64,000 nucleotides of DNA from a virus (lineage: Duplodnaviria > Heunggongvirae > Uroviricota > Caudoviricetes), in the IMG/VR virus record IMGVR_UViG_2667527592_000002, one strand, 5' to 3'. The notes under the pieces were generated by a model. That model saw only the letters and a program-made list of their open reading frames with translations. It did not search any database and was not told the origin of the DNA. Every line of letters begins with the position of its first letter. Position 1 is the stretch's first letter. Shown in pieces: positions 10,673-40,659 of this stretch. A program made the position numbers and the translations under genes.

Positions 10673-11379
10673 TGGAAATCTGCATTCTTGAAAAGCCATC
10701 AATGACCAGCATTGAGATCGCGGAGCTGGTGGGAAGTCGCCCGGATAACGTTAAACGCACTATTGAACGCTTGAGTAAATCAGGTGTTATTCCACTTCCT
10801 CCAATGGAGGTTTCCGAAAATATCAATAACTTAGGATTTAAAGTTAAAAATTCACACTACGTCTTCGAAGGCGAGCAAGGCAAGCGTGACAGTATCATTG
10901 TCGTTGCGCAGCTTTCTCCCGAATTCACCGCCCGGCTGGTGGACCGCTGGCGCGAACTGGAAGAACAAGTACGCCAGCCGTTGACCGAAATAGAGATGAT
11001 CGCCGCAATGGCTGCAAATGCAGTTCAGCAGCAAAAGCGGCTTCATGTTGTTGAGTCAAAGGTTAGCCAGGTGGTAGAAACCGTCGAGCAAATCAAGAAG
11101 GGCAACATGCCGGAAGGTTACATTGGCTACCGCCAGCTGGCGGCGAAATGCGGCCTGACCGAAGCCAAATGCCGCAACCTTGTCAACGCTTACCGGATTC
11201 CCACCGATACGCATGAGTTTTTAACTCCAGAGGGGGTATTGTCGCGTCGTTCCATCGTCGCCTTATCTCCCTTCATGAATGCTTTTAACCGGATGATGTC
11301 GGAGGCTGAACACCGAGGAAAACGTTGGTATCACCCAAAAATGGGGCAATTCCAGGTGATCGGTTGGGGAGGTGAGTGA
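10672..11379 (+). CDS. Rha/Ant-family antirepressor (copy 1)
   Basis: N-terminal MTSIEIAELVGSRPDNVKRTIERL (phage Rha-type motif); paralogue of 50784..51725. Confidence 0.7.
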   Translation: MEICILEKPSMTSIEIAELVGSRPDNVKRTIERLSKSGVIPLPPMEVSENINNLGFKVKNSHYVFEGEQGKRDSIIVVAQLSPEFTARLVDRWRELEEQVRQPLTEIEMIAAMAANAVQQQKRLHVVESKVSQVVETVEQIKKGNMPEGYIGYRQLAAKCGLTEAKCRNLVNAYRIPTDTHEFLTPEGVLSRRSIVALSPFMNAFNRMMSEAEHRGKRWYHPKMGQFQVIGWGGE

Positions 11380-22448: not shown

Positions 22449-23032
22449 TATGGTAATGCAAGAGCACGCTTTGGCACCGTGCAGGCCAAAGTTCAGCAGG
22501 TTTAGTGCGGAAAGTGGTTTCAGAGAGAGCACTTTGCGGAGTAAACGACAATACATGTTGAGCCACGGAAGGTCTTTTTAAGGTGTTCATTGATGATGGT
22601 CCGGCAGAGAGTAACGGTACATGCTGCATCTAATCATCAATGCACATCTTCAACATTAAGGAGGCATAGGGATTTTTGTGGCGGTTACCTTTTGCCCTGA
22701 GTCTCCTTAATGTTGCGGTAATGCACCTATGCGGATGTGGCCTTGCATTGTGTCTTGAAAGAATGGGGTAAGGCCGGGGATATCCCCAGGGGGAGGCACC
22801 CCCGCTGCAACGAACAGCCACAGACGGCAGTCGAGTGATGGAAACGTGTAAAGACTTTAAACCTCGTTACGGCTGGCGTGGCAAACGCGACAACCGAGAC
22901 AGAGCGGTGACGGGCGGAGAGAGTGCCGCATCAAGAAAGAAGCCGACTTGTGATCCCTTTCTGCGGGCATTTGAAAGTGAATCCAGCTCAGGCAGTCGGC
23001 TTCTTTCTTGTGTGAGATGTAGCGTATTTGCC

Positions 23033-23056
23033 CATCTTCGGGTGGGCTTTTTTAGG
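23033..23056 (+). terminator. hairpin with UUCG tetraloop plus T-run
   Basis: gcccatc-ttcg-ggtgggc + tttttt in ORF-free region upstream of tRNAs. Confidence 0.5.
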
Positions 23057-23513
23057 GTTTTCGTCATGGTTAGCGACTTTGCGGCGGTTTAGAAACCGAC
23101 CATTAAAGTAAATGCAAACGATGATCTGATGATGGTAGCGGCCTAAGAAGCCTGACGCCACGGGGTATGAGTCGTCCCCCGTCAAAAAATCGACCGCAGA
23201 GTGTCCCCGTCTGTGTATTAGGGAACGGGGAGGCATAACAGGCAAGGGCGCTGGTGTGATTAACCAGATGAATGAGAAGGGTCAGGTCTTTCTGGTCAGC
23301 GCCCTTACCTGTTACGTCCCTCCCGCGTAACAGCCATTGCTTGATGGTATATGGGAAAGTTTGTTGGTTACGGGTATATCCCGTCATGCTGAAGGCGCTA
23401 ATCACGCTGGAAGCCAGGGTTATGCATCCCCTGTTACTGAATTGCAGCCAGGGCGCGGTGCGCCGAAAAGCATACGGAGGTGGAAGCCCTCGCCGGAGAC
23501 GTACCCGGCAAGT

Positions 23514-23589
23514 GATGGTGTAGCTCAGCGGTTAGAGCGGTTGACTGTTAATCAACGGGTCGATGGTTCAAATCCATCCACCATCGCCA
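23514..23589 (+). tRNA. tRNA-Asn (anticodon GTT)
   Basis: 76 nt cloverleaf folded by hand; acceptor GATGGTG/CACCATC, T-loop TTCAAAT, anticodon loop CTGTTAA, encoded CCA. Confidence 0.9.
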
Positions 23590-23591
23590 AT

Positions 23592-23667
23592 GCCGGTTTA
23601 GCTCAGTTGGTAGAGCGCCTGCCTTGTAAGCAGGATGTCAGCGGTTCGAGTCCGTTAACCGGCACCA
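23592..23667 (+). tRNA. tRNA-Thr (anticodon TGT)
   Basis: 76 nt; acceptor GCCGGTT/AACCGGC, D-arm GCTCAGTTGGTAGAGC, anticodon loop CTTGTAA, CCA. Confidence 0.9.
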
Positions 23668-23677
23668 GCACAACAGG

Positions 23678-23757
23678 TAAGGGTATTTTGCGACGTCGGA
23701 GATCGCCGAGCTTGGCAGAGGGTTCGAATCCCTACGAAGTACCCTTACCGTTGTGAT
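23678..23757 (+). ncRNA. tRNA-like degenerate hairpin module (unit A)
   Basis: GGTAAGGGTA...GGTTCGAATCCC...TACCCTTACC: acceptor-like stem and T-loop-like element but no canonical cloverleaf and no CCA. Confidence 0.3.
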
Positions 23758-23889
23758 GAATGCGCAGGCTGATGCGCGAAAGACATTGCAGCTATTGCGG
23801 AAAAGAGCTGTCCGGCGGGGCAATTAAACGCCCGTGAGAGTCTGAAATAACCGCAAGCCGGAGATCAGCACCGGTCATCACAACACAAC

Positions 23890-23950
23890 AGGTAAGGGCA
23901 TTCTCCCTTATGGGGCTTGGCTTAAATGCATCGAGTGCTCTTACCGTTGT
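23890..23950 (+). ncRNA. hairpin module (unit B) sharing leader and trailer with unit A
   Basis: GGTAAGGGC...GCTCTTACC stem of about 9 bp; flanked by ggagatcagcacc leader and cgttgtgatgaa trailer. Confidence 0.25.
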
Positions 23951-24337
23951 GATGAAGTGCAGCTCTTTGAAGCAACCAGAAGATAAGCATCTGGCTTCAC
24001 AACATAAACCGCAGGAACGACCAATAAACGGTAGTCCGTATGGAGAACACCCCGTTGAGGAAGAGGCCTGGCCGGAACCGTAACCGGCACTACAACGTTG
24101 AGAACACTGGCGTAACGGGGTCATATCCCAATCTACGAATAAATGTTGCGTTGCAGCGTGACAACCAGTGTTCTCAACATTGTGGTGAATGCGTGTTGCT
24201 GGCGCGCAAGTCCGCCCTATGGCAACGAGGCGGCGTAGTAAATATCGATGCCTCAGTCATCAAGCGCACTGACCGGCCTTATGGGCTATGAAAAAAAGAG
24301 GCGCAGTCGGAGATCAGCACCGACCACCACAATCAAT

Positions 24338-24424
24338 GGAGAGTAGGGAGCATGGTGCTCAAGCGGTCTTGAAAACCGTCCCATTGCGCAAGCGATGATG
24401 GTTCGATTCCATTACTCTCCGCCA
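24338..24424 (+). tRNA. tRNA-Ser-like (anticodon TGA), long variable arm, atypical D-arm
   Basis: acceptor GGAGAGT/ACTCTCC, anticodon arm GCGGTCTTGAAAACCGT, T-loop TTCGATT, CCA; D-arm non-canonical. Confidence 0.6.
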
Positions 24425-24584
24425 TCGCAACGTTAAGAGTATTTGGCTAATTAAGCGAATGCCGGAAGCAGAACCGGATCACCAAATGCGTACAGGCGTC
24501 ATCGCCGCCCAGCCAGCCAAGTGCTCTTACCATTGCGGTGAATGCGGCTAAGCGCACGCGGAACAGTTAAAACAATCCTCCTTA

Positions 24585-24908
24585 GTGGTTAAGTCAAACA
24601 TCCCGGCGTTAATTGTTAACTGGTTAACGTCACCTGGAGGCACCAGGCACCGCAATCTAATAAAGTTTCAAGCAATGGGGTTTTTGTTGTCAGACTTCAG
24701 ATATAGATGGTTGTGGAAGGAGAGCCTGTACATAGTGCAGTTATTTCTTCCGCTATTTGTCTGCTTTGTCATGCTTCCTGAGCTGAAATACGCAATTTCA
24801 GACACTTTAAGCACTATCGTTACTTTTGTGTTTTATCTTTACTTTGATTACTTATTGAGCACTAAAATCAATGAATTATCCGAGGAAATGCAAGGTGGCT
24901 GTAAGTGA
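24585..24908 (+). CDS. small hydrophobic protein (start uncertain)
   Basis: ORF between tRNAs with two predicted TM helices. Confidence 0.25.
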   Translation: MVKSNIPALIVNWLTSPGGTRHRNLIKFQAMGFLLSDFRYRWLWKESLYIVQLFLPLFVCFVMLPELKYAISDTLSTIVTFVFYLYFDYLLSTKINELSEEMQGGCK

Positions 24909-26651: not shown

Positions 26652-27044
26652 ATGGAACAAATCAGCAGCGCAGAAATTGCGGATATCATGATCAGGGCTG
26701 ACTGCTATCTGACAGTCACTGAAATTACCACTCTCGCCAAAGAAAAATACCCTCATCTCCATGTTTCACGAGTAAGTGTAACTAACATCATTCGTCATTT
26801 TGTTCGTTCAAGCAGGGCAATCTGTGAGCTGGATGATCGTGTGTATCCACGAAAATACTGGCTACATGGTCTGAACGGATATCAGTTCAAGGTGCGCGGG
26901 CGCACGCCTGAATACGGTAGCTTACTGGTTAAAAACTGTAGCAGGAAATCAGTCGAACAGGCGCGAAAAGAGCAACGAGAGCTGGTGGACATGGCGAATA
27001 AGCTGTGGAATGCCGCCGTTAAAAAGCGTGGTGTTGCTTTATGA
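26652..27044 (+). CDS. hypothetical protein (late-activator position upstream of terminase genes)
   Basis: 130 aa; position only. Confidence 0.3.
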   Translation: MEQISSAEIADIMIRADCYLTVTEITTLAKEKYPHLHVSRVSVTNIIRHFVRSSRAICELDDRVYPRKYWLHGLNGYQFKVRGRTPEYGSLLVKNCSRKSVEQARKEQRELVDMANKLWNAAVKKRGVAL

Positions 27045-28405
27045 GTCTGGTTAATTGGGAGGAGCACCGCGCCCGCTTTATAGCGTTGCGTGAAGAAAAA
27101 GGGATCACTGTAAAGGAATACTGTGAGGAGCATGGCCTTAGCTTCAATACAGCCAGAAAGCATCTCAATATGAAAAAAAATGAGGTGCGGTCGCAGGTAA
27201 AGACAACAAAAAAAAGCACCAAATCACCTGAAAAAAAACGGGCGGGAAGAGCAACAAAAAAGCTGGAAGAGGGTGCAGAAAAAACAAAATTTACAGAAAT
27301 TGACAATTCGCAGGGTGCAGGTTCTTTCCGAAGTATGCCAAGAAAGAAAACTTCGGATCATGAAAGTAATTCCAATAATAACAATGAGATAAAAGAATCT
27401 GTCAGGAGATCATTGCGCGAAAAAATGGCGAAAATGATCCCCGAAGAAGATAAAAGCGCCCCAAAAATTGAGGGATCTTCAGCAATGATCCCTGGCGGTG
27501 CTGTGCAACGTGCCACATTGCCCACTACGAATGTGGCTCGCGACATGATGAAGAACGGCGCAGAAGAACACCTGCGGTTAGCAATTCAAATGGCGCAAGA
27601 GCGCGCACTTCAGTATCAAAGCATTGTTGATCAGGAGGCCGAACGTCTACAGGCGGAAATAGACGCCTTGGGCGATAAAGAGCCAGAAGGAATGCACCCT
27701 GGGCAGCGCCTTCTCGGTCTAATCAGTGACGCGGCCTACTACATGAATGATTTTATCAGTAGGTTGGCAGCTATATATCAGTCCGAACAAAAGCTGCGAC
27801 AGGGGGATGAAAAGCTTCGTCAGAGCGCTCGCCAGCAAGCATTCAAAGAGGCTGAGGCCAGAGAAAAACTCGAATTAGCACGCCTACAGGCCGAACAGCG
27901 TGGCAAAGAGATTGAATATCGCATTGGCGCTGACGCACGCGCTGCCAGAGTTATCGCCGCCGCTATACGTATGCGTGAGCGCGAGGAACTGGATGATATC
28001 GGTGTTGCTGAATACATCGAGCGCCAGGGGGTCAGCGTCCCGGCTATCCTCGCGGCGCGCGCGGCGAAAGCTATCACTCTTCTCGAACCACCTGTTTCTG
28101 ACGTCAATGATGTTGATGATGAACAGCTGGACAAAGAGGCAAGGGAGTTTGCAACGCTTCAGGCTAACCATCCGCAATGGCTGGCAGAGCGCCGGGCGGA
28201 TGTGGCAACCATTGTTGAAGAATTGGGGTGCGGAGATTACGACCGCAATGGCGAGCGTAAAGCTGGAGAATTCGAGGCCAGCGACGAAGAGCTGGATATT
28301 GACCCTTCGGCAACGGCTGAAATTTACGGTGATTATGATGCATCTGATGCAGGGTATGACGCCGGAGATGATGATATCGCGATAGAACCGCCGGAGGATG
28401 ATTAA
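27041..28405 (+). CDS. terminase small subunit-like (PacA-like)
   Basis: 454 aa, N-terminal HTH-like region, basic linker, acidic C-terminus; directly upstream of large terminase. Confidence 0.45.
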   Translation: MSLVNWEEHRARFIALREEKGITVKEYCEEHGLSFNTARKHLNMKKNEVRSQVKTTKKSTKSPEKKRAGRATKKLEEGAEKTKFTEIDNSQGAGSFRSMPRKKTSDHESNSNNNNEIKESVRRSLREKMAKMIPEEDKSAPKIEGSSAMIPGGAVQRATLPTTNVARDMMKNGAEEHLRLAIQMAQERALQYQSIVDQEAERLQAEIDALGDKEPEGMHPGQRLLGLISDAAYYMNDFISRLAAIYQSEQKLRQGDEKLRQSARQQAFKEAEAREKLELARLQAEQRGKEIEYRIGADARAARVIAAAIRMREREELDDIGVAEYIERQGVSVPAILAARAAKAITLLEPPVSDVNDVDDEQLDKEAREFATLQANHPQWLAERRADVATIVEELGCGDYDRNGERKAGEFEASDEELDIDPSATAEIYGDYDASDAGYDAGDDDIAIEPPEDD

Positions 28406-29913
28406 TGGCTGGCGGGCGCAAGATTAAATGCGTCACCAGCGATCCACGCTGGCGCGATATGGTAATCAAATACCGCTACAACTTTACCCAGGCTGTTGTC
28501 GATATTTTTGGGATGTTCCCCTCCCACCAGCAGCAGCAGATCATTCAGTCAGTGCAGGAAACGGGGAGTAGGACGACCGTCACGTCCGGACACGGAACGG
28601 GGAAGTCGTCCCTTACCGCGATGTTGCTGTTGATTTTTATGATCCTGTTCCCCGATGCCCGTGTCATCATTGTTGCTAACAAGATAGGCCAGGTAAAAAC
28701 AGGCGTATTCAAATACGTTAAACAGTATTGGGCGAATGCAGTTAAGCGTCATGGGTGGTTGCAGACCTATTTTGTCCTCTCTGACACCATGTTTTATGAG
28801 CGCTCCCGTAAGGGGATTTGGGAAGTTCTCTGCAAAGGTTATCGACTCGGCAACGAAGAAGCGCTGGCGGGGGAACACGCGGCACATTTGCTTCTAATTC
28901 TGGACGAAGCATCTGGTATATCTGATAAGGCGATCGGCGTAATGACCGGTGCTCTTACTGAAGAAGATAACCGGATGTTGATGCTATCCCAGCCAACAAG
29001 GCCAAGTGGTTATTTCTACGATTCGCACCATTCTCAAGCAAAAACCCCAGACAACCCGAAAGGGATCTGGACAGCAATTGTTCTTAACTCGGAAGAATCA
29101 CCGTTCGTCACACCACAATTCATCAAGCAGAAGCTTCTGGAATATGGCGGGCGCGATTCTATTGAGTACATGGTCAAGGTGCTTGGTCAGTTCCCACGAG
29201 AAATTAACGGCTATTTGCTTGGTCGTGATGAATGCGATCGCGCTGCTCGCCGCAAGGTGTTGTTGGAGAAAAACTGGGGATGGGTGGCAACGGCTGACGT
29301 TGGTAATGGGCGAGATAAGTCGGTCCTCAACATCTGCAAAGTATCTGGTCACAGGGATAAGCGGCGCGTTGTTAACTTTAAGGTAATGGAGATGCCTGGC
29401 ACTATGGACCCATTGGCCTTTGCTGACTTCATATATAACGAATGTACGCCGGAAAAATACCCGAATATAACAATCGCGGTTGATGCTGATGGTTTTGGTT
29501 CTGATACGTGTGCGCAGTTGGTGCGTCGTGGTGCGAACCCGGTACGTATTCGGTGGGGAAAACCCATGTTTGCGAACAAAGACAGGGAGCGATTTGTTAA
29601 TCAGCGTGCCTACGCAAATATTATGGCGCGTGATGCCATAAAGTCAGGGCGTATGCGGATAGACAGTGACCCTAAAACGGCAGAGCAAGCGTCAAAAATC
29701 CCCTTTTTACTGAATGAAGAAGGGAAAATGGCGATGATGCGCAAAGAGCACATGCGGCAAAAGCTAAACATCAAATCGCCTGACCGATGGGATACCTACT
29801 GCTTCACTATGCTGGTGGACTATGTGCCTGCTAATGAAGATATTGGTGCCGAAATGGCAACTTTCCGAGATCAGGTTCTGGCGGATATCGAAATGCCGGA
29901 TCTGGATATATAA
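28405..29913 (+). CDS. terminase large subunit (PacB-like ATPase)
   Basis: Walker A TSGHGTGKSS, Walker B LLLILDEASG; 502 aa. Confidence 0.75.
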   Translation: MAGGRKIKCVTSDPRWRDMVIKYRYNFTQAVVDIFGMFPSHQQQQIIQSVQETGSRTTVTSGHGTGKSSLTAMLLLIFMILFPDARVIIVANKIGQVKTGVFKYVKQYWANAVKRHGWLQTYFVLSDTMFYERSRKGIWEVLCKGYRLGNEEALAGEHAAHLLLILDEASGISDKAIGVMTGALTEEDNRMLMLSQPTRPSGYFYDSHHSQAKTPDNPKGIWTAIVLNSEESPFVTPQFIKQKLLEYGGRDSIEYMVKVLGQFPREINGYLLGRDECDRAARRKVLLEKNWGWVATADVGNGRDKSVLNICKVSGHRDKRRVVNFKVMEMPGTMDPLAFADFIYNECTPEKYPNITIAVDADGFGSDTCAQLVRRGANPVRIRWGKPMFANKDRERFVNQRAYANIMARDAIKSGRMRIDSDPKTAEQASKIPFLLNEEGKMAMMRKEHMRQKLNIKSPDRWDTYCFTMLVDYVPANEDIGAEMATFRDQVLADIEMPDLDI

Positions 29914-29940
29914 AGCCCCGCGATGCGGGGCCGGTTGTGA

Positions 29941-30978
29941 TTACCAGAGCTTCGCGGCGTACTGCGTTTGGGGGAATGTGTATCCGTAACGTTCTTCGAT
30001 TGCTTTGCCGTATTTTTTACGAGCTTCATTCAGTTTAATGCCGGTCAGGTCGTCTCCAGAGGCCATCATTACCTCTAACAATTCCAGATCCATTTTATCC
30101 AGCCTTGCCATTGCTTCACGTGATGTACGTATCTTACGCTCAATGATATGGCGAATAGCCGGATCGGCATCCTCCAGCATCTTAGCGGATTTCTGCTTAA
30201 GGCTTTCATTGCGAATATCGATGTTCCTTAAGATGTACGACTTCGCAACGTAGCTTGGCTGGTGTTTTTCCAGGTCACGAACACGATATAAGTTAAAATC
30301 GCCGAGAAGGCTGCAAGGTACCGATTCGACGCCAGAATAAATTGTAATGCTCCGGCGTTCACCAACATTATTGACAACGGGGATCGTTGTCTTCGGTAGT
30401 CTTGCGAAAACCAATGCGCCATGTGCGCCAACTCTAAAGCGAGAAAGGGCATTGCTGCCTTCGATGTTTGTTGTCAGCACAACATCTGTATATGCCTCTT
30501 TACGCGCCCGGTAGATCTCGCCTTCAGGCTCAGCTTCAAAGAAGCGCTGTTCTTCTTCAAGAGCGCCTACGATTTGAGAAAAAACCCTATTTTTCAGGCT
30601 TTTCTTTATGATTTTGTCGTATTTTTTGAGCAATTGTTCACGTGTAAATGTACGTGTTGTTGTAGCGCTTTGCACAACAACATGCGTGCTTTGATTGGTG
30701 TCCTCAATGATGAATGGGATCGGAGAATATACAGACTCAACAATGTTCGACGCTTTGCCGTCGGCATCGCGGCACATGTCAACGAAGGCTTTCCATTCAG
30801 CAAGACATTTTTCAGCTTCTTCTAATATGTTTTGGTCATGCGTTAATGCAACATGGCGGAATTCCTCGCCAGCATAACTGGTATCATGGAAAACAGAGTT
30901 TGCGACCACCAGCTCTTTCCACCGTTCAGCGGTTTGCAGGAACCGTTTGTACTCTTTCTCGATCGACTTCTTACTCAT
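29941..30978 (-). CDS. hypothetical protein (occupies P1 c1-repressor position; unverified)
   Basis: 345 aa ORF with bidirectional hairpin after stop; motif site 19 nt upstream of start. Confidence 0.4.
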   Translation of the reverse strand: MSKKSIEKEYKRFLQTAERWKELVVANSVFHDTSYAGEEFRHVALTHDQNILEEAEKCLAEWKAFVDMCRDADGKASNIVESVYSPIPFIIEDTNQSTHVVVQSATTTRTFTREQLLKKYDKIIKKSLKNRVFSQIVGALEEEQRFFEAEPEGEIYRARKEAYTDVVLTTNIEGSNALSRFRVGAHGALVFARLPKTTIPVVNNVGERRSITIYSGVESVPCSLLGDFNLYRVRDLEKHQPSYVAKSYILRNIDIRNESLKQKSAKMLEDADPAIRHIIERKIRTSREAMARLDKMDLELLEVMMASGDDLTGIKLNEARKKYGKAIEERYGYTFPQTQYAAKLW

Positions 30979-30996
30979 TATTCCTACTCGATTTAG

Positions 30997-31007
30997 TTTT
31001 CTAACAT
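30997..31007 (-). promoter_or_regulatory. TGTTAGAAAA-type recurrent motif
   Basis: ttttctaacat on + strand. Confidence 0.4.
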
Positions 31008-31187
31008 AAAATTACTATGACAAATTTATGTCGAATAACAGAGTGAGTAAAGGATCGAACTGTGATTTTTTGTCATCAATTTTAGAAAACCAACCGTAGA
31101 AACCACACTTCGCAAATTAAAGACCATGAAGGCAACGTGTTACTGGTCATCATCAATCTATGATGGATTTAAAAAAATCGGCATTTT

Positions 31188-31221
31188 ATAACTTTAAATA
31201 ATTGGCATTATTTAAAGTTAG
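31188..31221. other. lox-like recombination site (13-8-13)
   Basis: ATAACTTTAAATA-ATTGGCAT-TATTTAAAGTTAG; arms inverted 12/13; first 7 nt identical to loxP arm ATAACTT; about 150 bp upstream of cre. Confidence 0.75.
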
Positions 31222-31372
31222 GCTATAATCATGTGTAGATGAACAGTGTTGACATCACTGAAAATACGTGCCTCGAATCAAAGGCTTGTATTTTGAAAAT
31301 TAACTTATAGCTACCCTGTCATTTTTATATTTTTCGCGTAGCGTCATCTGTATATAGAGGTGTAATAGTTTC

Positions 31373-32401
31373 ATGGGTGAATTAATTATCTCTGGCAGTT
31401 CCGGTGGTTTTCTGCGCAACATTGGCAAAGAGTACCAGGAAGCCGCAGAAAACTTTATGCGGTTCATGAATGACCAGGGGGCTTATGCGCCGAATACTCT
31501 GCGCGACCTCCGGTTGGTGTTTCATTCCTGGGCGCGCTGGTGTCACGCTCGCCAGCTTGCCTGGTTTCCGATCTCACCAGAAATGGCCCGCGAGTATTTT
31601 CTTCAGCTGCATGATGCCGATCTGGCTTCGACCACCATTGATAAGCACTACGCCATGCTGAACATGCTGCTTTCGCATTGTGGCCTTCCGCCACTTTCGG
31701 ATGATAAAAGTGTTTCTCTGGCTATGCGGCGCATCCGGCGCGAAGCAGCAACTGAAAAAGGCGAACGAACAGGCCAGGCTATACCGCTGCGGTGGGACGA
31801 TCTGAAACTGCTCGACGTCCTGTTGTCCAGGTCAGAACGGCTGGTGGACCTGCGCAACCGGGCTTTTCTCTTTGTTGCATACAATACGCTGATGCGTATG
31901 TCGGAAATCTCGCGTATTCGTGTAGGAGATCTGGACCAGACAGGTGACACTGTCACGCTACATATTTCACACACGAAGACAATAACGACCGCCGCCGGGC
32001 TTGATAAGGTGCTTTCCCGTCGCACTACCGCTGTGCTGAATGACTGGCTGGATGTTTCCGGGCTTCGCGAACATCCTGACGCAGTGCTGTTCCCGCCGAT
32101 ACACCGTAGCAATAAGGCCAGGATCACGACAACGCCCCTTACTGCACCTGCAATGGAGAAAATATTCAGCGACGCCTGGGTGTTGCTGAATAAAAGAGAT
32201 GCTACGCCAAACAAAGGAAGATACCGGACGTGGACCGGGCATAGTGCACGCGTCGGGGCCGCTATTGATATGGCTGAAAAGCAGGTGTCTATGGTGGAGA
32301 TCATGCAGGAAGGAACCTGGAAGAAACCGGAAACACTTATGCGGTATCTTCGCCGTGGCGGCGTGTCTGTGGGGGCTAATAGCCGCCTGATGGATTCGTA
32401 A
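31373..32401 (+). CDS. cre: Cre-like tyrosine recombinase
   Basis: colinear with P1 Cre as recalled: ...SLAMRRIRRE..., ...AYNTLMRMSEISRIRV..., ...GHSARVGAAIDMA..., ...EIMQEGTWKKPETLMRYLR (catalytic R-H-R-W-Y positions conserved). Confidence 0.92.
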   Translation: MGELIISGSSGGFLRNIGKEYQEAAENFMRFMNDQGAYAPNTLRDLRLVFHSWARWCHARQLAWFPISPEMAREYFLQLHDADLASTTIDKHYAMLNMLLSHCGLPPLSDDKSVSLAMRRIRREAATEKGERTGQAIPLRWDDLKLLDVLLSRSERLVDLRNRAFLFVAYNTLMRMSEISRIRVGDLDQTGDTVTLHISHTKTITTAAGLDKVLSRRTTAVLNDWLDVSGLREHPDAVLFPPIHRSNKARITTTPLTAPAMEKIFSDAWVLLNKRDATPNKGRYRTWTGHSARVGAAIDMAEKQVSMVEIMQEGTWKKPETLMRYLRRGGVSVGANSRLMDS

Positions 32402-32407
32402 ATTAAA

Positions 32408-32418
32408 TTTCTAACACA
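32408..32418 (-). promoter_or_regulatory. TGTTAGAAAA-type recurrent motif
   Basis: tttctaacaca. Confidence 0.4.
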
Positions 32419-32474
32419 TCTTTTTAGATTAACGCCTTTGCTGTAAAGTACCCTCGCCTATTTAGGAGGGTGCT

Positions 32475-32819
32475 TTGCAGAGTCAAATCACGGAATCAAG
32501 ACGCTTCAAGGTGGATGGTTACACCGTAACCTTCGCCGCTGGTGTTAAGAACAGTCATGCTGTCGTTGTGTTCGGCATCATGACCGGGCTTGAGGCCGTC
32601 CCTGTGTTTACCCTCGAAAAAAACTGGCGAAATCTGGAGGAAGCAGAAAGCTACGTCCGGAAAGTAACCATCATTGCCGCCGAAAAACTCCTGGCCCACT
32701 ATCAGGAAAATTATCGCACTATGGTCGAGAAGATTAATCTCGCTTTCACTCGCCCCACTACCGGCTTTATTGCACCGGATACTAATGCAGGTCGATATCC
32801 TGCAAGGGGGCGTCGGTGA
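32475..32819 (+). CDS. hypothetical protein
   Basis: 114 aa ORF after cre. Confidence 0.3.
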   Translation: MQSQITESRRFKVDGYTVTFAAGVKNSHAVVVFGIMTGLEAVPVFTLEKNWRNLEEAESYVRKVTIIAAEKLLAHYQENYRTMVEKINLAFTRPTTGFIAPDTNAGRYPARGRR

Positions 32820-33292
32820 AAACTTATTACCCATCTCTGAATTGTTACCCGTCTTCCTATCCAGAATTATCCGGGAAGCTGTTAGCTCTATTAGCTAAAG
32901 CACCTACGGAATGGTTTAAGCCAGTCGTTATCAATCCACACTTCCTGGATTACGGATCTGTTCGCACTCGTAACGAACTCAAAAACCTACTGGCGCATGG
33001 ATTCATTCGACACCGTGCCGGGAAAGGCTATCAGTTAGCGATTGCGCCAGAAGAGGCCATGCGGCTATTCGCATATCGTGACAGCCAGACAAAAGCTCGG
33101 GTAATAGCTCAAATACTTCATAACGGCAGCACCTATGCCCGCCAGTTTGGCGGCGACACGTCGCAGTTCTTGCGGGCGGTGCGATCGCTGGAGGAGCAAG
33201 GAGTTATTGAAAGTTCCTGTCTTCCTGTTCCTACCGTTCCACATATCAAACGTCGGGTTTACACCTTCACGCAGAGAGCTAAAAAACAATGA
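32816..33292 (+). CDS. hypothetical protein
   Basis: 158 aa ORF, overlapping stop/start. Confidence 0.3.
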   Translation: MKTYYPSLNCYPSSYPELSGKLLALLAKAPTEWFKPVVINPHFLDYGSVRTRNELKNLLAHGFIRHRAGKGYQLAIAPEEAMRLFAYRDSQTKARVIAQILHNGSTYARQFGGDTSQFLRAVRSLEEQGVIESSCLPVPTVPHIKRRVYTFTQRAKKQ

Positions 33293-33783
33293 TTTACGTA
33301 AAAGTGAAACGCCTACATCCGGCAGCAAAACTTCCAGCTTATGCCACCTCCGGATCGGCGGCGATGGATTTTGAGGCTGTTGAAATAACACCATGCGTCG
33401 ATAGCAATGGTGAAATTTCCTCAAGCTGGTGGGTGCATACCGGACTGGCTATGGAGATCCCGCCCGGCTGGTGTCTGAAACTCTATCCGCGATCCGGATT
33501 GGGCTGCAAAAAACATACTCGCCTGGCTAACTGCGTAGGAATTATCGACTCCGATTATCGCGGTGAAATCATGGCAAAACTGATTACTGATCCCGGCGGG
33601 GAAGGCGTTTGTCTCAAGCCTGGAATGGCTGTCATGCAAGGCATTTTTGAGCGTGTTGAACAAGTCTCACTAGTCGAGGTTGAGGAACTCAACGAAACGG
33701 AACGTGGTGCTGGTGGCTTTGGTAGCACATCGGAAGGCCACTTTGAAATTAAGCGTTCACCGCTTCAGTACGAAAAGTTATAA
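33289..33783 (+). CDS. dut: dUTPase
   Basis: motifs ...GIIDSDYRGE... and C-terminal ...RGAGGFGSTS... Confidence 0.85.
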   Translation: MIYVKVKRLHPAAKLPAYATSGSAAMDFEAVEITPCVDSNGEISSSWWVHTGLAMEIPPGWCLKLYPRSGLGCKKHTRLANCVGIIDSDYRGEIMAKLITDPGGEGVCLKPGMAVMQGIFERVEQVSLVEVEELNETERGAGGFGSTSEGHFEIKRSPLQYEKL

Positions 33784-33797
33784 GCAGAGAAAAGACT

Positions 33798-34475
33798 ATG
33801 AATAACATGACAACGAAAGAGCTTTTGACGGCACTTCCAAAATACAAAAGCCATAAAACAGTTCGTGCCTCAAAAATCAAAGATATCGAAATTATCGCCC
33901 TAATGGATGTGGTCCTTCTTTGCAACATCGAAGTCGTTGAGCCAGAAGGGGTAAAAGTCCATGTTGATAAAATGTTTTTGCAAAAACACCGACCAGAAAT
34001 TGGCGGATATCTGGTCGCTTATGAGGACGGATCTCTGTCCTATTCACCAGAAAAAACATTTGAAGAAGGCTTTAGTCGGACTAACGACTTCTTCGAAAAT
34101 GGGGCATTGCTCAGCATTGAAGGTCACAATGGGGTGACATTCATTACAGCCAGGGACGTAACTATTTCTGCTGGCGGTATCGCTACTCTACAAGAAGAAA
34201 TCGACCTTGAAGCAGCCGACTTTTCTGACGCGCTGATGTGGCTGAAGGATGGCAAGAAAGTTGCTCGACGCGGGTGGAACGGCGAAAACCAATTCTGCTG
34301 GCTGGTTCCTGAAGGACAGTACCCGGCACGAATGGAAGCCATTAAGGGATATTTCCCCGGCGACCTCGTTCCGTATGGTGCTTATTTCGCCTTAAAAAAT
34401 GCACAAGGTGTAGTTGTTCCGTGGGTTCCTTCTGTAGGCGACTTACTGGCATGTGACTGGTTTGTAGTGGAGTAA
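33798..34475 (+). CDS. two-domain protein with C-terminal DUF2829 (Tad2-type)-like domain
   Basis: ...DALMWLKDGKKVARRGWNGENQFCWLVPEG...VVPWVPSVGDLLACDWFVVE. Confidence 0.5.
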   Translation: MNNMTTKELLTALPKYKSHKTVRASKIKDIEIIALMDVVLLCNIEVVEPEGVKVHVDKMFLQKHRPEIGGYLVAYEDGSLSYSPEKTFEEGFSRTNDFFENGALLSIEGHNGVTFITARDVTISAGGIATLQEEIDLEAADFSDALMWLKDGKKVARRGWNGENQFCWLVPEGQYPARMEAIKGYFPGDLVPYGAYFALKNAQGVVVPWVPSVGDLLACDWFVVE

Positions 34476-34481
34476 TTTGAC

Positions 34482-35288
34482 ATGGAAAGCACCAAAACAA
34501 TTCAATACCGCTTGCGTAATGGCCTGCTGGTGGCTGTTAACGCCGACATGTCACTGCCGTTTGACACGATTGAACGCACTATCATGACGTATCTCGGCTT
34601 TAATGAAGAACTGAATGAAGAGCATGGCGTAGCTATATGGAGTGATGCAGACAGCGGCGTTCGTCGTTACATCACCGCCAGGGGCAAAGACTACTCTCTG
34701 GAAGAACTGTTTGCCCTTGCGCAGTCTTTCGAATGTGTAGCATTAGACCTGTTTAATGATCCTGCTATAGCGCAACGACTTATACGCGAGCTTGGGCTAT
34801 CCGTTACACCAATTATCTTTAAAAATGGCAGCCTGACTGGCACATGGCGCGTAGAACGCATCTCAAACTACCTTCCATATAACCGACAGTTAAATGGAGT
34901 AATCTCCGGCGTTAATCAGCCCGTAGCGTGTGAAAATGTAAATCTGGTTGTCGCTGTTTTGGCAACCGCATGTCGTGTTATCGGTTTGGCTAAACAGGCA
35001 TTTATTCATTTCCCAAATGGTGCAGAAGGTAGCGCAGAGATTATCGCGTGTGATTTCGAATTTACCTGGATGCTACGCGAATATCTGGACCAAACAGTGT
35101 TCCGCGCCGAAGAACTGGATATGTATATCACGTCAACGATTCCTGATGATGTGCGTGCTGAAGCAATCGCCACAGCAAGGGCCAAATGCCGTGCGGCGAT
35201 TGCAGAACAGGCCAAAGAAGAACAGTCCGATGAAGTCGCGGCAGATGTGGAGGCAGAGGTAGCGGAGGATGCTGATGCTGACGCCTAA
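34482..35288 (+). CDS. hypothetical protein with acidic C-terminal tail
   Basis: 268 aa; C-terminus ...EEQSDEVAADVEAEVAEDADADA. Confidence 0.35.
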   Translation: MESTKTIQYRLRNGLLVAVNADMSLPFDTIERTIMTYLGFNEELNEEHGVAIWSDADSGVRRYITARGKDYSLEELFALAQSFECVALDLFNDPAIAQRLIRELGLSVTPIIFKNGSLTGTWRVERISNYLPYNRQLNGVISGVNQPVACENVNLVVAVLATACRVIGLAKQAFIHFPNGAEGSAEIIACDFEFTWMLREYLDQTVFRAEELDMYITSTIPDDVRAEAIATARAKCRAAIAEQAKEEQSDEVAADVEAEVAEDADADA

Positions 35289-36375
35289 AAACATCACCGA
35301 ATTACCAGAGTGGAGAGAGCTGGTAAGCAAATATAGCCATGACTGGGCATTAGCAGCAGAAGAGTTGATGGGTGTTAAGTTAACCCACCAGCAAAAGCTA
35401 ATTGTTGAGGCGATTCAACAAAAAGGTTCAGCAGTCAGCGTCACCACTCCTGAAGGGATAGGCCAAAAGACGGTTATCGCTATAATTAGTATTCTTTATA
35501 CAATCCTGATGCCTGAGTCTAAAACGGTTATTGTTTCCCCAAAGTTCTATAATTGTCGCAGGCAAGTTATCCAATACATAAGTACGTATTGGGATAGAGT
35601 CAGTAACAGAATCCCATTGCTGGGAGAATATTTTAAAGTCGATGGAAACGGCATCAATCATCGTTACCGGGAATATTGGGGCTGCGAAATTAAGCCATAT
35701 CACCGAAATTATGAGGAAGGTTTCGGTGGATATTATGCTGAACATCTTTTAATCATTGTTACGGAGGCGGCTCTTGCTGGCGATCGGCTATTCAGCATGT
35801 TAAGAGCATCGTTAGTAAGTGACGATTCACGTATACTTTTAATGTCCGCTCCTTCAGAGGAGGAGCATGGACACTTTTACGATTCCCATCATGGTCGTGC
35901 TAAATCAGAAGAAAATCCATGTGGTATTTATACAGCCATCAAGCTGAACGCAGAAGATACCCCCATTATTTCTCAAGGTTATCTTGATAACATTGCAGAA
36001 ATATATGGTGGTAAAAACAGCGATTACTACCGTCGTATGGTTCTTGGTGAGTTTCCTGGTATTAGGGGGGCTGTTCTTGAATCAGATATGCCGAAGACAA
36101 TGCGCTTTTCGATGCCTGATGGTAGTGAATGGATAATGCCATTACGAGTGATAGCCCGGCATCATGCACAGCACCACGCCAAAAAACATGGCGTTACAAC
36201 ATTGGAGTGGTTGAAATCGCACACCATTCCACTCTTCACTGCAGATCACAATGCTATCGTTGAGTGGGCAAAAACAATTCCGTGGGAGAATGTTGCTGAA
36301 TACGCCCACATGCTAAAACCGCCGAAAGACAGGCAAGAAATTAGCTGGCTGACAGCAGAAAAAATCATTGAGTGA
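35269..36375 (+). CDS. terminase-large-subunit-like ATPase-domain paralogue, degenerate Walker motifs
   Basis: shares ...HFYDSHHG.AK...NP.GI.TAI.LN.E..P...QG.L...AEIYGG... with PacB-like 28405..29913; Walker A TPEGIGQKT, Walker B LLIIVTEAA (DE replaced by TE). Confidence 0.5.
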   Translation: MLMLTPKNITELPEWRELVSKYSHDWALAAEELMGVKLTHQQKLIVEAIQQKGSAVSVTTPEGIGQKTVIAIISILYTILMPESKTVIVSPKFYNCRRQVIQYISTYWDRVSNRIPLLGEYFKVDGNGINHRYREYWGCEIKPYHRNYEEGFGGYYAEHLLIIVTEAALAGDRLFSMLRASLVSDDSRILLMSAPSEEEHGHFYDSHHGRAKSEENPCGIYTAIKLNAEDTPIISQGYLDNIAEIYGGKNSDYYRRMVLGEFPGIRGAVLESDMPKTMRFSMPDGSEWIMPLRVIARHHAQHHAKKHGVTTLEWLKSHTIPLFTADHNAIVEWAKTIPWENVAEYAHMLKPPKDRQEISWLTAEKIIE

Positions 36376-36381
36376 TAGTAG

Positions 36382-36412
36382 GAAGCCCGCCTGGTTGAGC
36401 GGGCTTCTTTTC
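36382..36412. terminator. bidirectional hairpin terminator
   Basis: gaagcccgc-ctggttga-gcgggcttc + ttttc between convergent genes. Confidence 0.55.
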
Positions 36413-36791
36413 AAATATTGGAACCATATAGTTCACGTAGTTTTTCCGCTACTGAAGATACGGGGATTTCACCAGTTGCAGCCCCCACCGCAAGTTCCAC
36501 CAGCACGGGAGAATCATATACCTGTATACCGTTACGGCGTAGAAATAGCAGCGCACTGTTTAGCGCGGTACGCTTATTGGCATCATTGAATATATGCCCT
36601 CTCGCAGTAGCCACCAGGTAGGTTGCGGAGACTTCGAAAAGGTCGGTGATCTCTTCGTAGGCAACTCTGGCCTGAACTCTCCCGATAATGGCCTCTGCCC
36701 TACCCGGATCTGACATTCCCGGCAGGCCGCCGTAGCGGCTTATATTCGCATCATGAAGCGCAATAAGTTCTTCCGGTGATATATGCCTCAT
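36411..36791 (-). CDS. doc: Doc toxin (Fic-fold kinase)
   Basis: [40 protein letters not shown]... near-identical to P1 Doc as recalled. Confidence 0.95.
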
Positions 36792-37018
36792 TATCGGTTA
36801 ACCAGTTCCTTGTTGGTGGAGTCCAGGGTGTCAAACAGGGATGCAAATTCAGCATCCAGCGCCGCCTTTTTGTAGGCTTCGAAAGTAGCCTTGCTGACAA
36901 TTACTGCTGGTTCACGGCCTCTGCGGGTGATTTCAACCTCTTCCCCGGCTTCAACATTGTTGAGCAATTCAGAAAGGTTGCCGCGCGCGGTACGGAAGTT
37001 AATGGACTGCATAAACAC
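36791..37018 (-). CDS. phd: Phd antitoxin
   Basis: ...[49 protein letters not shown]...; likely true start at ATG 37012; stop overlaps doc start. Confidence 0.95.
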
Positions 37019-37084
37019 CTCGTGTACTCGTTATGTGTACACAATCATAAACTTCACAGGCATAAAGCACCAGCACTTTGCAGC

Positions 37085-37474
37085 TTAAATGACCGGACAA
37101 TCATCAAACTCCCCACTTCGGGCATCATTGATGACATGAGTGATCACACCAAAAACAGCATTACTACCCGTGTAACCATCGTCATCTACTGGTAACGCCT
37201 CTTTCTTCCCGGTGCTTAAATCCTCCAGGTGCTGGCGCGGATACTTTCGGTATCTCTTTATGCGATATTCACCCTCCATAGCGCACACAAGCAGCGAACC
37301 ATCAACTGGAGTAAGCGAAGAATCAACCACCAGCAAAGCACCCTGCAATATTCCCTCACGGTGATGGCTGTCTGCCGCCCGCATGAAGTATGTCGCTGAT
37401 GGATGCCTGATTAGTTGCTGATCAAGAGAAATTCTGCTTTCAACATAGTCCGCCGCAGGAGAAGGGAAGCCCAT
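37085..37474 (-). CDS. humD: HumD (UmuD'-like SOS mutagenesis subunit homologue)
   Basis: MGFPSPAADYVESRISLDQQLIRHPSATYFMRA... colinear with UmuD from GFPSPAADY onward. Confidence 0.85.
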   Translation of the reverse strand: MGFPSPAADYVESRISLDQQLIRHPSATYFMRAADSHHREGILQGALLVVDSSLTPVDGSLLVCAMEGEYRIKRYRKYPRQHLEDLSTGKKEALPVDDDGYTGSNAVFGVITHVINDARSGEFDDCPVI

Positions 37475-37561
37475 AGCGTTTTCACCTCAATAATACTGTT
37501 CATTTATACAGTATACATTAAAGAGACACCTTTGGTGCAAACGCGTTATCGCCGGTCATCA

Positions 37562-37846
37562 TTAACTCCTACATTCAGGGCAAGAGTTCCCTTCCGCAAA
37601 ATAGGGGAAACTGCTATCAAGCTCATCACACCATCTGCGATGGTCGTAGCACCAAAACGCCTCCCACGGTGCACGGAAATACTTCATCCACCAGGACACT
37701 CGATCAGGTATATCTGCTGGTGGCAGCTCTTCTGGCAATAATTTGCCTGATAATTCCCTTTCCGCCCGCGCCAGCATTCCTTTTAGACTCGCATTCTCTT
37801 TTTCAAGAATCTCTATGCGCGCCTGTAACTCAGCTTTCGTTGGCAT
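37562..37846 (-). CDS. hypothetical protein (start trimmed to MPTKAELQ...)
   Basis: ORF track 37562..37918 overlaps upstream gene; internal Met resolves overlap; coiled-coil. Confidence 0.3.
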   Translation of the reverse strand: MPTKAELQARIEILEKENASLKGMLARAERELSGKLLPEELPPADIPDRVSWWMKYFRAPWEAFWCYDHRRWCDELDSSFPYFAEGNSCPECRS

Positions 37847-38597
37847 GGTCCGCCTCATGTTTATCAGCCACCAGCGGCAATAAAGCCTTCGCCATTTCAT
37901 GAACCAACATGGCATCAATGACGCCTAGCGTATGGCCCGGCTTAATCTTTAATGCGGCCTCAAGATAGCCTCTTTCCAGAGTGGTTTTTACGCTTTTCCT
38001 GGGCGCTTGTTGGGAACTATCCGGAAAATCCGGATGGTTCCCAGCCTCATAAGCTACCCGCAACCAGTGCATGAATGTTTCCGCAGACACACAACCGCAG
38101 TCCACATCGATTTTCCCGCGTTGCTGTTCCAGCCATTGCTCAAAATCTAACTTGTAAGCCTTACTTTCAGACTTAACTTTCTGAGACGCTATGCGAGCTG
38201 CTTCATACTGTTCACGAGTGACAACCGATGTAAACGCACTGCGATCAAGGTCACTGATATCGCAAATAATGCCATCAATGGAATAATTCTTTGATGATTG
38301 GTAATTTTTATGGCGCGTACCAAAAAGAACCGTAGCGCGACTACTACCTGGCATCGTAATGGATAGATGGCAAAAATCTTTTCCATCAGGCCATCCACGC
38401 CCCTTAGATAATTCCTTCACTAACAAGTCAATCAGTGTCATAGCTTTACCATCCTTGCAAGGCGCTAAAGCTATTTTGGCAAGCTCCAATACTTCATCTG
38501 CTGTGTATCCAGCACCGTGACCATACATTTCGATACGGGAAATAATATCTGAAATACGCTCTTTAGTGATTCTTGTCATAGTTTTATTTCCTTGCAT
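37830..38597 (-). CDS. hypothetical protein
   Basis: 255 aa ORF. Confidence 0.35.
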   Translation of the reverse strand: MQGNKTMTRITKERISDIISRIEMYGHGAGYTADEVLELAKIALAPCKDGKAMTLIDLLVKELSKGRGWPDGKDFCHLSITMPGSSRATVLFGTRHKNYQSSKNYSIDGIICDISDLDRSAFTSVVTREQYEAARIASQKVKSESKAYKLDFEQWLEQQRGKIDVDCGCVSAETFMHWLRVAYEAGNHPDFPDSSQQAPRKSVKTTLERGYLEAALKIKPGHTLGVIDAMLVHEMAKALLPLVADKHEADHANES

Positions 38598-38785
38598 GGT
38601 TCGCCTTTACGGCAAACAGCTACACGGTCATTTCTTACATTAACCACAGTCACCGTTCCGTCATCGCATTGAATAACGATGAAAGAGTGTTCATTCTCTT
38701 TTGTGCAATGTTGCTGTTCCCCTGCTGTAACAGTGAGGGGAATTAATAAAATAATAATTACTGCGAATTTACTAAATGTTGCCAT
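38576..38785 (-). CDS. small secreted protein / putative lipoprotein
   Basis: N-terminal signal-like MATFSKFAVIIILLIPLTVTAG, four Cys. Confidence 0.3.
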   Translation of the reverse strand: MATFSKFAVIIILLIPLTVTAGEQQHCTKENEHSFIVIQCDDGTVTVVNVRNDRVAVCRKGEPCKEIKL

Positions 38786-38809
38786 AGCAATCTTTCTTTC
38801 TGTTTTTCA

Positions 38810-39103
38810 TTATGGTTGAATCCAGTTATCTTCAATAGCAATGCTCAATCTTTGTAACCATTCTGCTAATTTCAGCATTGCTTCTCTTTCGCTTAAACCA
38901 CGAGGAAAATCATCAAGCGATATTGTTGGCTTGAAGTTTCCCAAATTATCCATTTCAACGGTCAGATTTTGCTCCAGCACGGTATTCCTTACGCGGCTAT
39001 TGTGCCGAAGCAAATATACTGAACGTGATTTATTGGTTTTGTGGTCGAACGTATATTCGGTAAGTATCATCTGGCTTCCGCCATGATTATTACCGCGCCA
39101 CAT
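38810..39103 (-). CDS. hypothetical protein
   Basis: 97 aa ORF. Confidence 0.3.
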   Translation of the reverse strand: MWRGNNHGGSQMILTEYTFDHKTNKSRSVYLLRHNSRVRNTVLEQNLTVEMDNLGNFKPTISLDDFPRGLSEREAMLKLAEWLQRLSIAIEDNWIQP

Positions 39104-39410
39104 AATTACTCCGTGTTAATTTTACCTTTATCGCGAACACCTTTACCGGTTTATCGCCGAAGTGCGGGTGTGTGATTATCTTGATTTCATAGCCGTCATA
39201 CGGAACATCAATTCTGCGGCTGGAATCGTCGCGCTTCGGATATCCCTTTGTGATAATCAGGCGGTCATACTTACGGTTAACGAGGCGCTTATTCCAGTAG
39301 TCATTACACAGGCGATACTCTTCCGTTTTCTCCCCGCGAATCATGGCATCGAAGTATTCACCTTTAACGGCAAGTTGCAGGTTAGCCATTACCTCACCTC
39401 CAGTCTCCAT
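39090..39410 (-). CDS. hypothetical protein
   Basis: 106 aa ORF. Confidence 0.3.
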   Translation of the reverse strand: METGGEVMANLQLAVKGEYFDAMIRGEKTEEYRLCNDYWNKRLVNRKYDRLIITKGYPKRDDSSRRIDVPYDGYEIKIITHPHFGDKPVKVFAIKVKLTRSNYVAR

Positions 39411-39649
39411 ACCGCCTGACCAATCCGGCTGGCATGGGTATCTTTGGATACTGTTCCGTCTTTAGCCAGCTCCATAAGAATTTTGCGCAAATCTGCCGAA
39501 CGCCATTCTTCATCAGGAAATTCCTTCTCCATTGCCAACCGCAGATTCCAGGTTGCCATCCTGAATGGATATTCCCCGCCGAGAGCTTTATCTTGCAGGG
39601 CAGCCCGGGAACGCATCACCTGCAAAACCTTCTCTTTTACATCCATCAT
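39389..39649 (-). CDS. hypothetical protein
   Basis: 86 aa ORF. Confidence 0.3.
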   Translation of the reverse strand: MMDVKEKVLQVMRSRAALQDKALGGEYPFRMATWNLRLAMEKEFPDEEWRSADLRKILMELAKDGTVSKDTHASRIGQAVWRLEVR

Positions 39650-40659
39650 TTCGCCTCCTGCGGCGGTTCTGGTAGCGGCATCCAGTGAGTTACTTTCGAT
39701 GCCGGTTCTTCCCCATCGTCAGTAACTGCCCACCATTTGTTTCTCGACCAATCGTAATACCCTTCGAAGGTATTGCACTCAGTCCAGCCGTAAGACTTAC
39801 CCCAACACCAAACATACTGTTTATCGTTCGGCATTCGCTCACTACAGCTTATCCAACTATCCGGAATGACCGGAGAGTTGCCAGTCAGTCTACGCAAAAT
39901 AGCCTTAACAGCCTCAATACGGTCATCATCGCAACTTTCCAGCGTATCTATGCGATCGAGCATGATGATGGCGTTATCAATATCAGGATTGCCGGTCCAC
40001 TCATTACCGCGATTGGATTCGGCAGTCTGGTTGCCGCGTACTGGTTGATTCTCGGCTTTACCCTGTCTGTCGTTGCTGCATGAATGCCCTTCCAGCCAGG
40101 CCAATGCTTGTCGCATGAAATACGCAATATGTTTGCCGTGGTAATCGTCTTCATTGATGTGAAAAGCGATACTGCGGATGTATTCAATTGCGTTTTCAAT
40201 GGCCTCCGGCGTTATCGGCGCTGACATATTTTGATTTTGGAGTGCCAAGACGCGGCTGGCATCCTCAACACCTTTAACGGCATCTGCGCAGTAGTTATAG
40301 CGATTGCATTCCACTAACTTTTGCTTTAGGTTTTCAATTGCTTGCGCGACATCAGCCTGTATTACCGGCGCTGGCGGTGCGGTATAAAACTTCGTCCCCA
40401 ACGGCAACAACTTCATCGCTTTTTCTCCCTTAATGATGCGATAAGTTGATTTCCCGCCAAGGTCTACCGTTCCATCCATAACAAGGCCATATCGCTTCTC
40501 TGAAACTTCACCAATAGGCTCTGCTTCCAGCGATGCCAGTGCGATACGAAACACATTGGCAAGCAGGCTGTCTGAAGATTGGTTATCGTGCGCCGGGTCG
40601 CTCAGGAAACCAGTGATGAATGATTTAATCTCCGCGTTTTCTCTGGTAATAGTGATCAT
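39646..40659 (-). CDS. hypothetical protein with DUF551-like C-terminus
   Basis: C-terminal ...DKQYVWCWG...VTHWMPLPEPP. Confidence 0.4.
   Translation of the reverse strand: MITITRENAEIKSFITGFLSDPAHDNQSSDSLLANVFRIALASLEAEPIGEVSEKRYGLVMDGTVDLGGKSTYRIIKGEKAMKLLPLGTKFYTAPPAPVIQADVAQAIENLKQKLVECNRYNYCADAVKGVEDASRVLALQNQNMSAPITPEAIENAIEYIRSIAFHINEDDYHGKHIAYFMRQALAWLEGHSCSNDRQGKAENQPVRGNQTAESNRGNEWTGNPDIDNAIIMLDRIDTLESCDDDRIEAVKAILRRLTGNSPVIPDSWISCSERMPNDKQYVWCWGKSYGWTECNTFEGYYDWSRNKWWAVTDDGEEPASKVTHWMPLPEPPQEAK

Follow-up and report, generated by a model that had tools for sequence, protein, structure and literature searches.

The palindrome at positions 31189 to 31220 of the window, by which we mean the whole 64,000-nucleotide stretch of viral DNA that was analyzed, is almost certainly the rox site of a D6-like plasmid prophage of the P1 family, and the gene to its right, which begins 152 nt away as it does in D6, almost certainly encodes the Dre recombinase. 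A base-by-base alignment matched the palindrome at 32 of 32 positions to the feature "region of crossover (rox) site for Dre recombinase" of phage D6 (AY753669.1, 4909 to 4940), and the open reading frame (ORF) at 31373 to 32401 matched Dre (AAV84949) at 341 of 342 residues with no gaps, the sole change being S2G. In the D6 record, the palindrome lies under the rox feature and the ORF under "dre: tyrosine recombinase." A megablast search against phage records returned Escherichia phage D6 at 97.6% identity, a nucleotide divergence of ~2.4% over the locus. Furthermore, the site used in Dre assays is printed as (A)TAACTTTAAATAAT TGGC ATTATTTAAAGTTA(G), which is the same 34 nt, including the two native boundary bases (PMC3082901). 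The features of the locus and of its left-hand neighbors are as follows.

27041 to 28405, plus strand: pacA, packaging (terminase), 454 amino acids (aa), with length and order as in AY753669
28405 to 29913, plus strand: pacB, packaging (terminase), 502 aa, with length and order as in AY753669
29941 to 30978, minus strand: c1-type phage repressor gene, left neighbor of rox, with position and length as for c1 of AY753669 (3661 to 4698, minus strand)
31189 to 31220, no strand assigned: rox, the 32-bp recombination target of Dre, annotated as misc_recomb in AY753669.1 and unique in the window
31189 to 31202, plus strand: left 14-nt arm of rox, TAACTTTAAATAAT, one half of an inverted repeat that is 100% complementary
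31203 to 31206, plus strand: asymmetric 4-nt core, TGGC, delimited by the repeat finder and variable among relatives
31207 to 31220, plus strand: right 14-nt arm of rox, ATTATTTAAAGTTA, the other half of the inverted repeat
31202 to 31229, plus strand: putative sigma-70-like promoter facing dre, TTGGCA-16 nt-TATAAT, agreeing with the consensus at 11 of 12 positions
31373 to 32401, plus strand: dre, Cre-like tyrosine recombinase, 342 aa, 341/342 identical to Dre AAV84949

At the sequence level, the locus has all the features that define Dre/rox, as well as those that define Cre-like tyrosine recombinases. Compared with the Dre/rox of D6 itself (AY753669, MF356679), the window shares the 32 positions of rox, the boundary bases, 341 of the 342 residues of Dre, the 152-nt spacing between rox and the start codon, c1 at the left, and orf2, orf3, and dut at the right; it differs in the conservative replacement of Ser by Gly at Dre residue 2. 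The preliminary description of this DNA had proposed a lox-type site that serves the adjacent Cre-like recombinase, the two forming an orthogonal pair. This reading was correct, because the site is the published rox and the recombinase is Dre apart from S2G, and it agrees with published work on the pair (PMC3082901, PMC3553980, PMC12331466). The Dre/rox system is thus one that is already known, and the description arrived independently at a tool that had been published and is in wide use. Dre/rox was reportedly described by Sauer and McDermott in 2004 (Nucleic Acids Res 32:6086). It is used routinely beside Cre/loxP in mice, zebrafish, cell lines, and bacteria, and the present case is one in which a genuine orthogonal recombinase/site pair was recognized from raw sequence alone.

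The 34-nt string on which that description was built, ATAACTTTAAATAATTGGCATTATTTAAAGTTAG, proved to be real when the letters were read, being present letter for letter at 31188 to 31221. Its assignment to the 13-8-13 architecture of loxP has to be revised. The repeat finder returned a perfect inverted repeat at 31189 to 31202 and 31207 to 31220, with 14-nt arms that are 100% complementary on either side of the asymmetric core TGGC, and the symmetry of the site is therefore 14-4-14. Dividing it as 13-8-13 is a loxP-style reading that puts two bases of each true arm into the spacer and leaves its own outermost pair, A31188 and G31221, unpaired. Even with three mismatches allowed, a search of the window gave just one copy of the 32-mer, against an expectation of 0 from 100 shuffles, and this copy is the sole perfect inverted repeat in the 64 kb with arms of at least 11 nt and a spacer of 2 to 10 nt. 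Any repeat of these dimensions arose in only 2 of 30 first-order Markov simulations, with the longest at most 12 nt. A better site elsewhere, which had been named as a finding that would count against the pair, was not encountered: the window, ~64 of the roughly 90 kb of the replicon, holds no second or better rox. One further half-site-like match, with two mismatches, lies at 10833 to 10846, which does not exceed what chance would give.

A 24-nt direct repeat adjoins rox (31169 to 31192 versus 31193 to 31216, 75% identical) and includes a sequence resembling the rox core region, AAAAAAT-CGGC-ATTTTAT. We treat this repeat as lineage specific or due to chance, because it occurs only in left flanks of the D6 type and is absent from other lineages.

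The encoded protein had been called homologous to Cre yet diverged from it, and this was borne out. Dre residues 22 to 341 aligned with residues 21 to 340 of the Cre chain 1nzb_A in a HMMER search of PDB chains (E = 5e-69), and the window Dre is ~40% identical to P1 Cre. All catalytic residues are kept: R175, E178, K202, H290, R293, W316, and Y325 of Dre align with R173, E176, K201, H289, R292, W315, and Y324 of Cre, and the HMMER alignment to Cre chains from PDB gives the same correspondence. The same catalytic residue numbers are listed for Dre in PMC4777119. A search of PDB sequences with the window Dre returned no Dre structure, every match being Cre or a Cre derivative. The protein has the two-domain architecture of Cre, with an N-terminal helical domain and a C-terminal integrase catalytic domain. 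The Pfam phage integrase catalytic domain, PF00589, scored 62.6 bits against a cutoff of 27.1, and PF02899 scored 21.6 bits, slightly under its cutoff of 22.3.

At the level of the site, rox and loxP match at 21 of 34 positions, namely, arm positions 1 to 7 and 11 to 13 and the first two spacer bases. The observation that the first 7 nt of the arm are shared with loxP is confirmed by this alignment, in which ATAACTT stands at the arm ends of both sites. The accompanying claim of a different inner arm and spacer holds for arm positions 8 to 10 and for the center; it does not hold for positions 11 to 13 and the first two spacer bases, which match. The P1 and D6 systems further have in common a tyrosine recombinase of roughly 340 aa with identical active-site residues and a short palindromic site beside its gene, in the pac-c1 region of a plasmid prophage. 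They differ at arm positions 8 to 10, in the center, and in their symmetry, which is 14-4-14 for rox and 13-8-13 for loxP. With agreement at 21 of 34 site positions and ~40% protein identity, the locus does not belong to Cre/loxP itself, and by these alignments Dre/rox is a homologous but distinct pair relative to Cre/loxP.

Cre/loxP and Dre/rox do not recombine one another's sites in either direction (PMC3082901, PMC12331466). When Cre, Dre, VCre, SCre, and Vika were each tried on the others' sites, no cross-reaction was seen, and Dre/rox in particular showed no cross-reactivity with Cre/loxP, VCre/VloxP, SCre/SloxP, or Vika/vox (PMC3082901, PMC3553980, PMC12331466). VCre/VloxP, SCre/SloxP, Vika/vox, Nigri/nox, and Panto/pox resemble Dre/rox in that each pairs a recombinase of the Cre family with a short palindromic site of its own, and all are used as mutually orthogonal tools. 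In contrast to rox, the sites VloxP, SloxP, vox, nox, and pox have a 13-8-13 architecture and arms of unrelated sequence. The reported identity of Vika to Dre is 23%, and the reported similarity of vox to rox is 33% (PMC3553980).

Dre recombines rox efficiently (PMC3082901, PMC3553980, PMC12331466), and it both excises and integrates DNA between rox sites in E. coli and in other cells (PMC3553980). Mutagenesis of the core and adjacent bases indicates that site compatibility depends on the bases on either side of the 4-bp core, and the authors of that study infer that the functional crossover region of rox is about as long as that of loxP, with cleavage at equivalent positions (PMC4777119). We likewise treat the exact cleavage positions in rox as inferred. 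By analogy with Cre/loxP, each 14-nt arm would be the binding site of one Dre monomer, and four monomers would synapse two rox sites. Tyr325 would then act as the nucleophile that cleaves and exchanges the first pair of strands, giving a Holliday junction, and the second pair would be exchanged within the central region, with the asymmetry of the TGGC core setting the direction of the site. If the analogy with P1 extends to the life of the phage, recombination at rox may circularize the terminally redundant infecting DNA and may resolve dimers of the plasmid prophage, allowing the low-copy plasmid to segregate. Given the identical site and the data on D6 Dre, the S2G allele of the window would be expected to recombine rox and not loxP.

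A scan for the two arms around any 4-nt core recovered 23 viral contigs. Our comparison comprises 26 loci, the window included, that carry a full-length recombinase ORF; at four more viral loci, the DNA was too short to hold the ORF. The recombinase start lay 152 to 153 nt from the site in 26 of 26 loci. Both arms were unchanged in all of these loci except two (L003 and L006), a count shaped by the way that the viral loci were gathered, which was through an exact-arm search with a site finder limited to one mismatch per arm. The independent evidence on arm conservation is that of the five plasmid loci, since these were fetched by overall DNA similarity and the viral loci by their arms. The arms were kept while recombinase identity to the window fell to 94%, to 89%, and, in L012, to 69.6%. 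Most loci have the core TGGC, and the variant alleles are the following.

L002, 2501 to 2532: rox allele with core TAGT
L003, 2411 to 2442: rox allele with core TAGT and a single arm change
L006, 1779 to 1810: rox allele whose left arm has a single A-to-G change, the right arm being unchanged
L012 (IMGVR_UViG_3300009011_000012), 3706 to 3737: rox allele with core TAGC and both 14-nt arms identical, beside a recombinase 69.6% identical to Dre
L019, 12405 to 12436: rox allele with core GGGG

Variation falls mostly in the 4-bp core. Fixed arms with a variable core appear as expected for the site of a tyrosine recombinase, since the arms would be read by the protein, while the core need just match that of the partner site. 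It is conceivable, although we lean against it, that the core, which as TGGC also lies in the −35 element of a putative dre promoter, has two jobs: that the alleles TGGC, TAGT, TAGC, and GGGG define which D6-like plasmid prophages can recombine when they share a host, as compatibility groups, and that they also set dre transcription or let Dre autoregulate it. If this were true, compatibility groups would limit or permit cointegration and module swapping at rox, and nature would already supply heterospecific rox sites in the form of the core alleles. The rox core variants, and the Dre alleles with as little as 70% identity whose sites still have the rox arms, are a possible source of variant tools.

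A consensus scan of 30900 to 31450 found one promoter-like match, at 31202 to 31229. Its −35 element, TTGGCA (31202 to 31207), spans the core plus the innermost base of each arm, and its −10 element, TATAAT, lies at 31224 to 31229. Most lineages, L012 among them, have TATAAT after rox, and L003 has TGTAAT instead. The promoter-like sequence may drive dre, and Dre bound to rox could, in principle, affect its own transcription. The overlap of a near-consensus promoter with the palindrome also lends itself to another reading, in which the palindrome is mainly transcriptional, as an operator/promoter of dre or a hairpin terminator on the c1 side, and merely resembles a lox site. The same reading draws on a palindrome with identical arms in a metagenome-assembled genome (MAG) of Clostridia, where the arrangement is A-run, hairpin, and T-run and AT-rich palindromes are seen to arise in other ways. 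However, the identical sequence is an experimentally used target of Dre (PMC4777119, PMC3553980, PMC12331466, PMC3082901), and the palindrome has neither a G+C-rich stem nor a T-run and drew no terminator call. Moreover, the variant cores weaken the −35 element (to TTAGTA and TGGGGA) while the arms stay as they are, which argues that selection acts on the arms. We consider a mainly transcriptional palindrome very improbable; as the sole function, a transcriptional role is refuted by the published recombination assays, whereas a promoter role could coexist with recombination without replacing it. Least probable of all is the reading that the AT-rich palindrome arose by chance, or that it is a dead remnant next to a recombinase gene in decay. 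The AT-richness of the intergenic region is the sole point in favor of this reading, which is refuted by conservation and by identity to a functional site: the chance expectation of 32-mer matches is none, no other perfect inverted repeat in the 64 kb has arms of at least 11 nt, the dre ORF is intact with all catalytic residues, site and gene occur together in 26 of 26 loci, and matching DNA is found in 154 plasmids and 124 complete E. coli genomes.

The Clostridia palindrome was the single match of an arm search in a species-representative genome collection (L030, 6381 to 6412 of OZ007016.1, core TAAT). It is not a rox site: the genes on either side of it converge, an A-run and a T-run border it, and there is no recombinase in its vicinity, all of which mark it as a coincidental terminator-like hairpin in AT-rich DNA. 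This hairpin serves as a caution for rox searches based on pattern only. Between rox and dre, a TTGACA hexamer is found at 31248 to 31253 within an 11-nt block, CAGT-TTGACA, that has one variable position (A or G). The hexamer is invariant in 7 of 7 aligned lineages; it has no acceptable −10 element at 16 to 18 nt and was not called by the promoter scan.

The surroundings of the rox-dre locus are those of a D6 relative. The gene order lpa-pacA-pacB-c1-rox-dre-orf2-orf3-dut, in which orf2 and orf3 are two small ORFs, is that of the D6 immC region, and the rest of the window is 95 to 98% identical to the complete D6 genome, the record of which was opened within rox ("right half of rox site (lox in P1)"). 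We read the window as a D6-like P1-family plasmid prophage that is not D6 itself, some segments being without a counterpart in D6. A P1-type pac site was not recognized, in that no cluster of TGATCA/G hexamers was present in or near pacA; just three scattered copies of the hexamer occur there, so that no pac-to-rox distance was obtained.

Two other regions of the window deserve mention. The stretch from 23027 to 24664 is ~95% identical to the tRNA-Asn/tRNA-Thr region of P1, P7, and RCS47, and outside it positions 1 to 25000 match D6 alone among the matches listed; we take this stretch to be a P1-type module common to the family. At 35269 to 36375 (plus strand), an ORF of 368 aa is paralogous to the N-terminal half, the ATPase half, of the terminase large subunit PacB. 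It is 34% identical to PacB residues 8 to 275 (E = 1e-52) and is without the C-terminal half. Its Walker motifs look degenerate by eye (GIGQKT versus GTGKSS and IIVTEA versus LILDEA), and it had no Pfam match. Of the region around it (33300 to 40300), half matches phage D6.

We also aligned the intergenic region across seven lineages, in which homology is clear to the right of rox and ends at its left edge. In L006 (1779 to 1810) and L029 (2148 to 2179), the 1.2 kb to the right of the site, on the dre side, is 97 to 99% identical to the window, versus 84.5% for the 1.2 kb to the left, of which the last ~100 nt is unalignable. This step in similarity fits natural exchange at rox between co-resident relatives and suggests that natural crossovers there may shuffle immunity and downstream modules. 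Alternatively, the step may reflect a fast-evolving immunity region that ends at rox by chance.

DNA matching a 3.4-kb query from c1 to orf3 (29900 to 33300) was found in 154 PLSDB plasmids, whose hosts are Escherichia, Salmonella, Shigella, and one Enterobacter. The rox-dre segment (31100 to 32450) was found in 124 of 5,426 complete E. coli genomes (about 2.3%), where 124 of its 127 places were on plasmids. One of the plasmid loci, in the 179-kb IncFIB/IncHI1B plasmid pHS30-1 (L005, 2519 to 3731), consists of rox and a Dre-like gene that is 89.5% identical. In this plasmid, and also in H70 and H72, rox-dre lies between IS26 and IS903B on large resistance-type plasmids and not in D6-like prophages. 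The homology of L005 to the window begins within ~20 nt of rox, and the locus looks like a captured rox-dre module, possibly one that serves as a dimer-resolution system.
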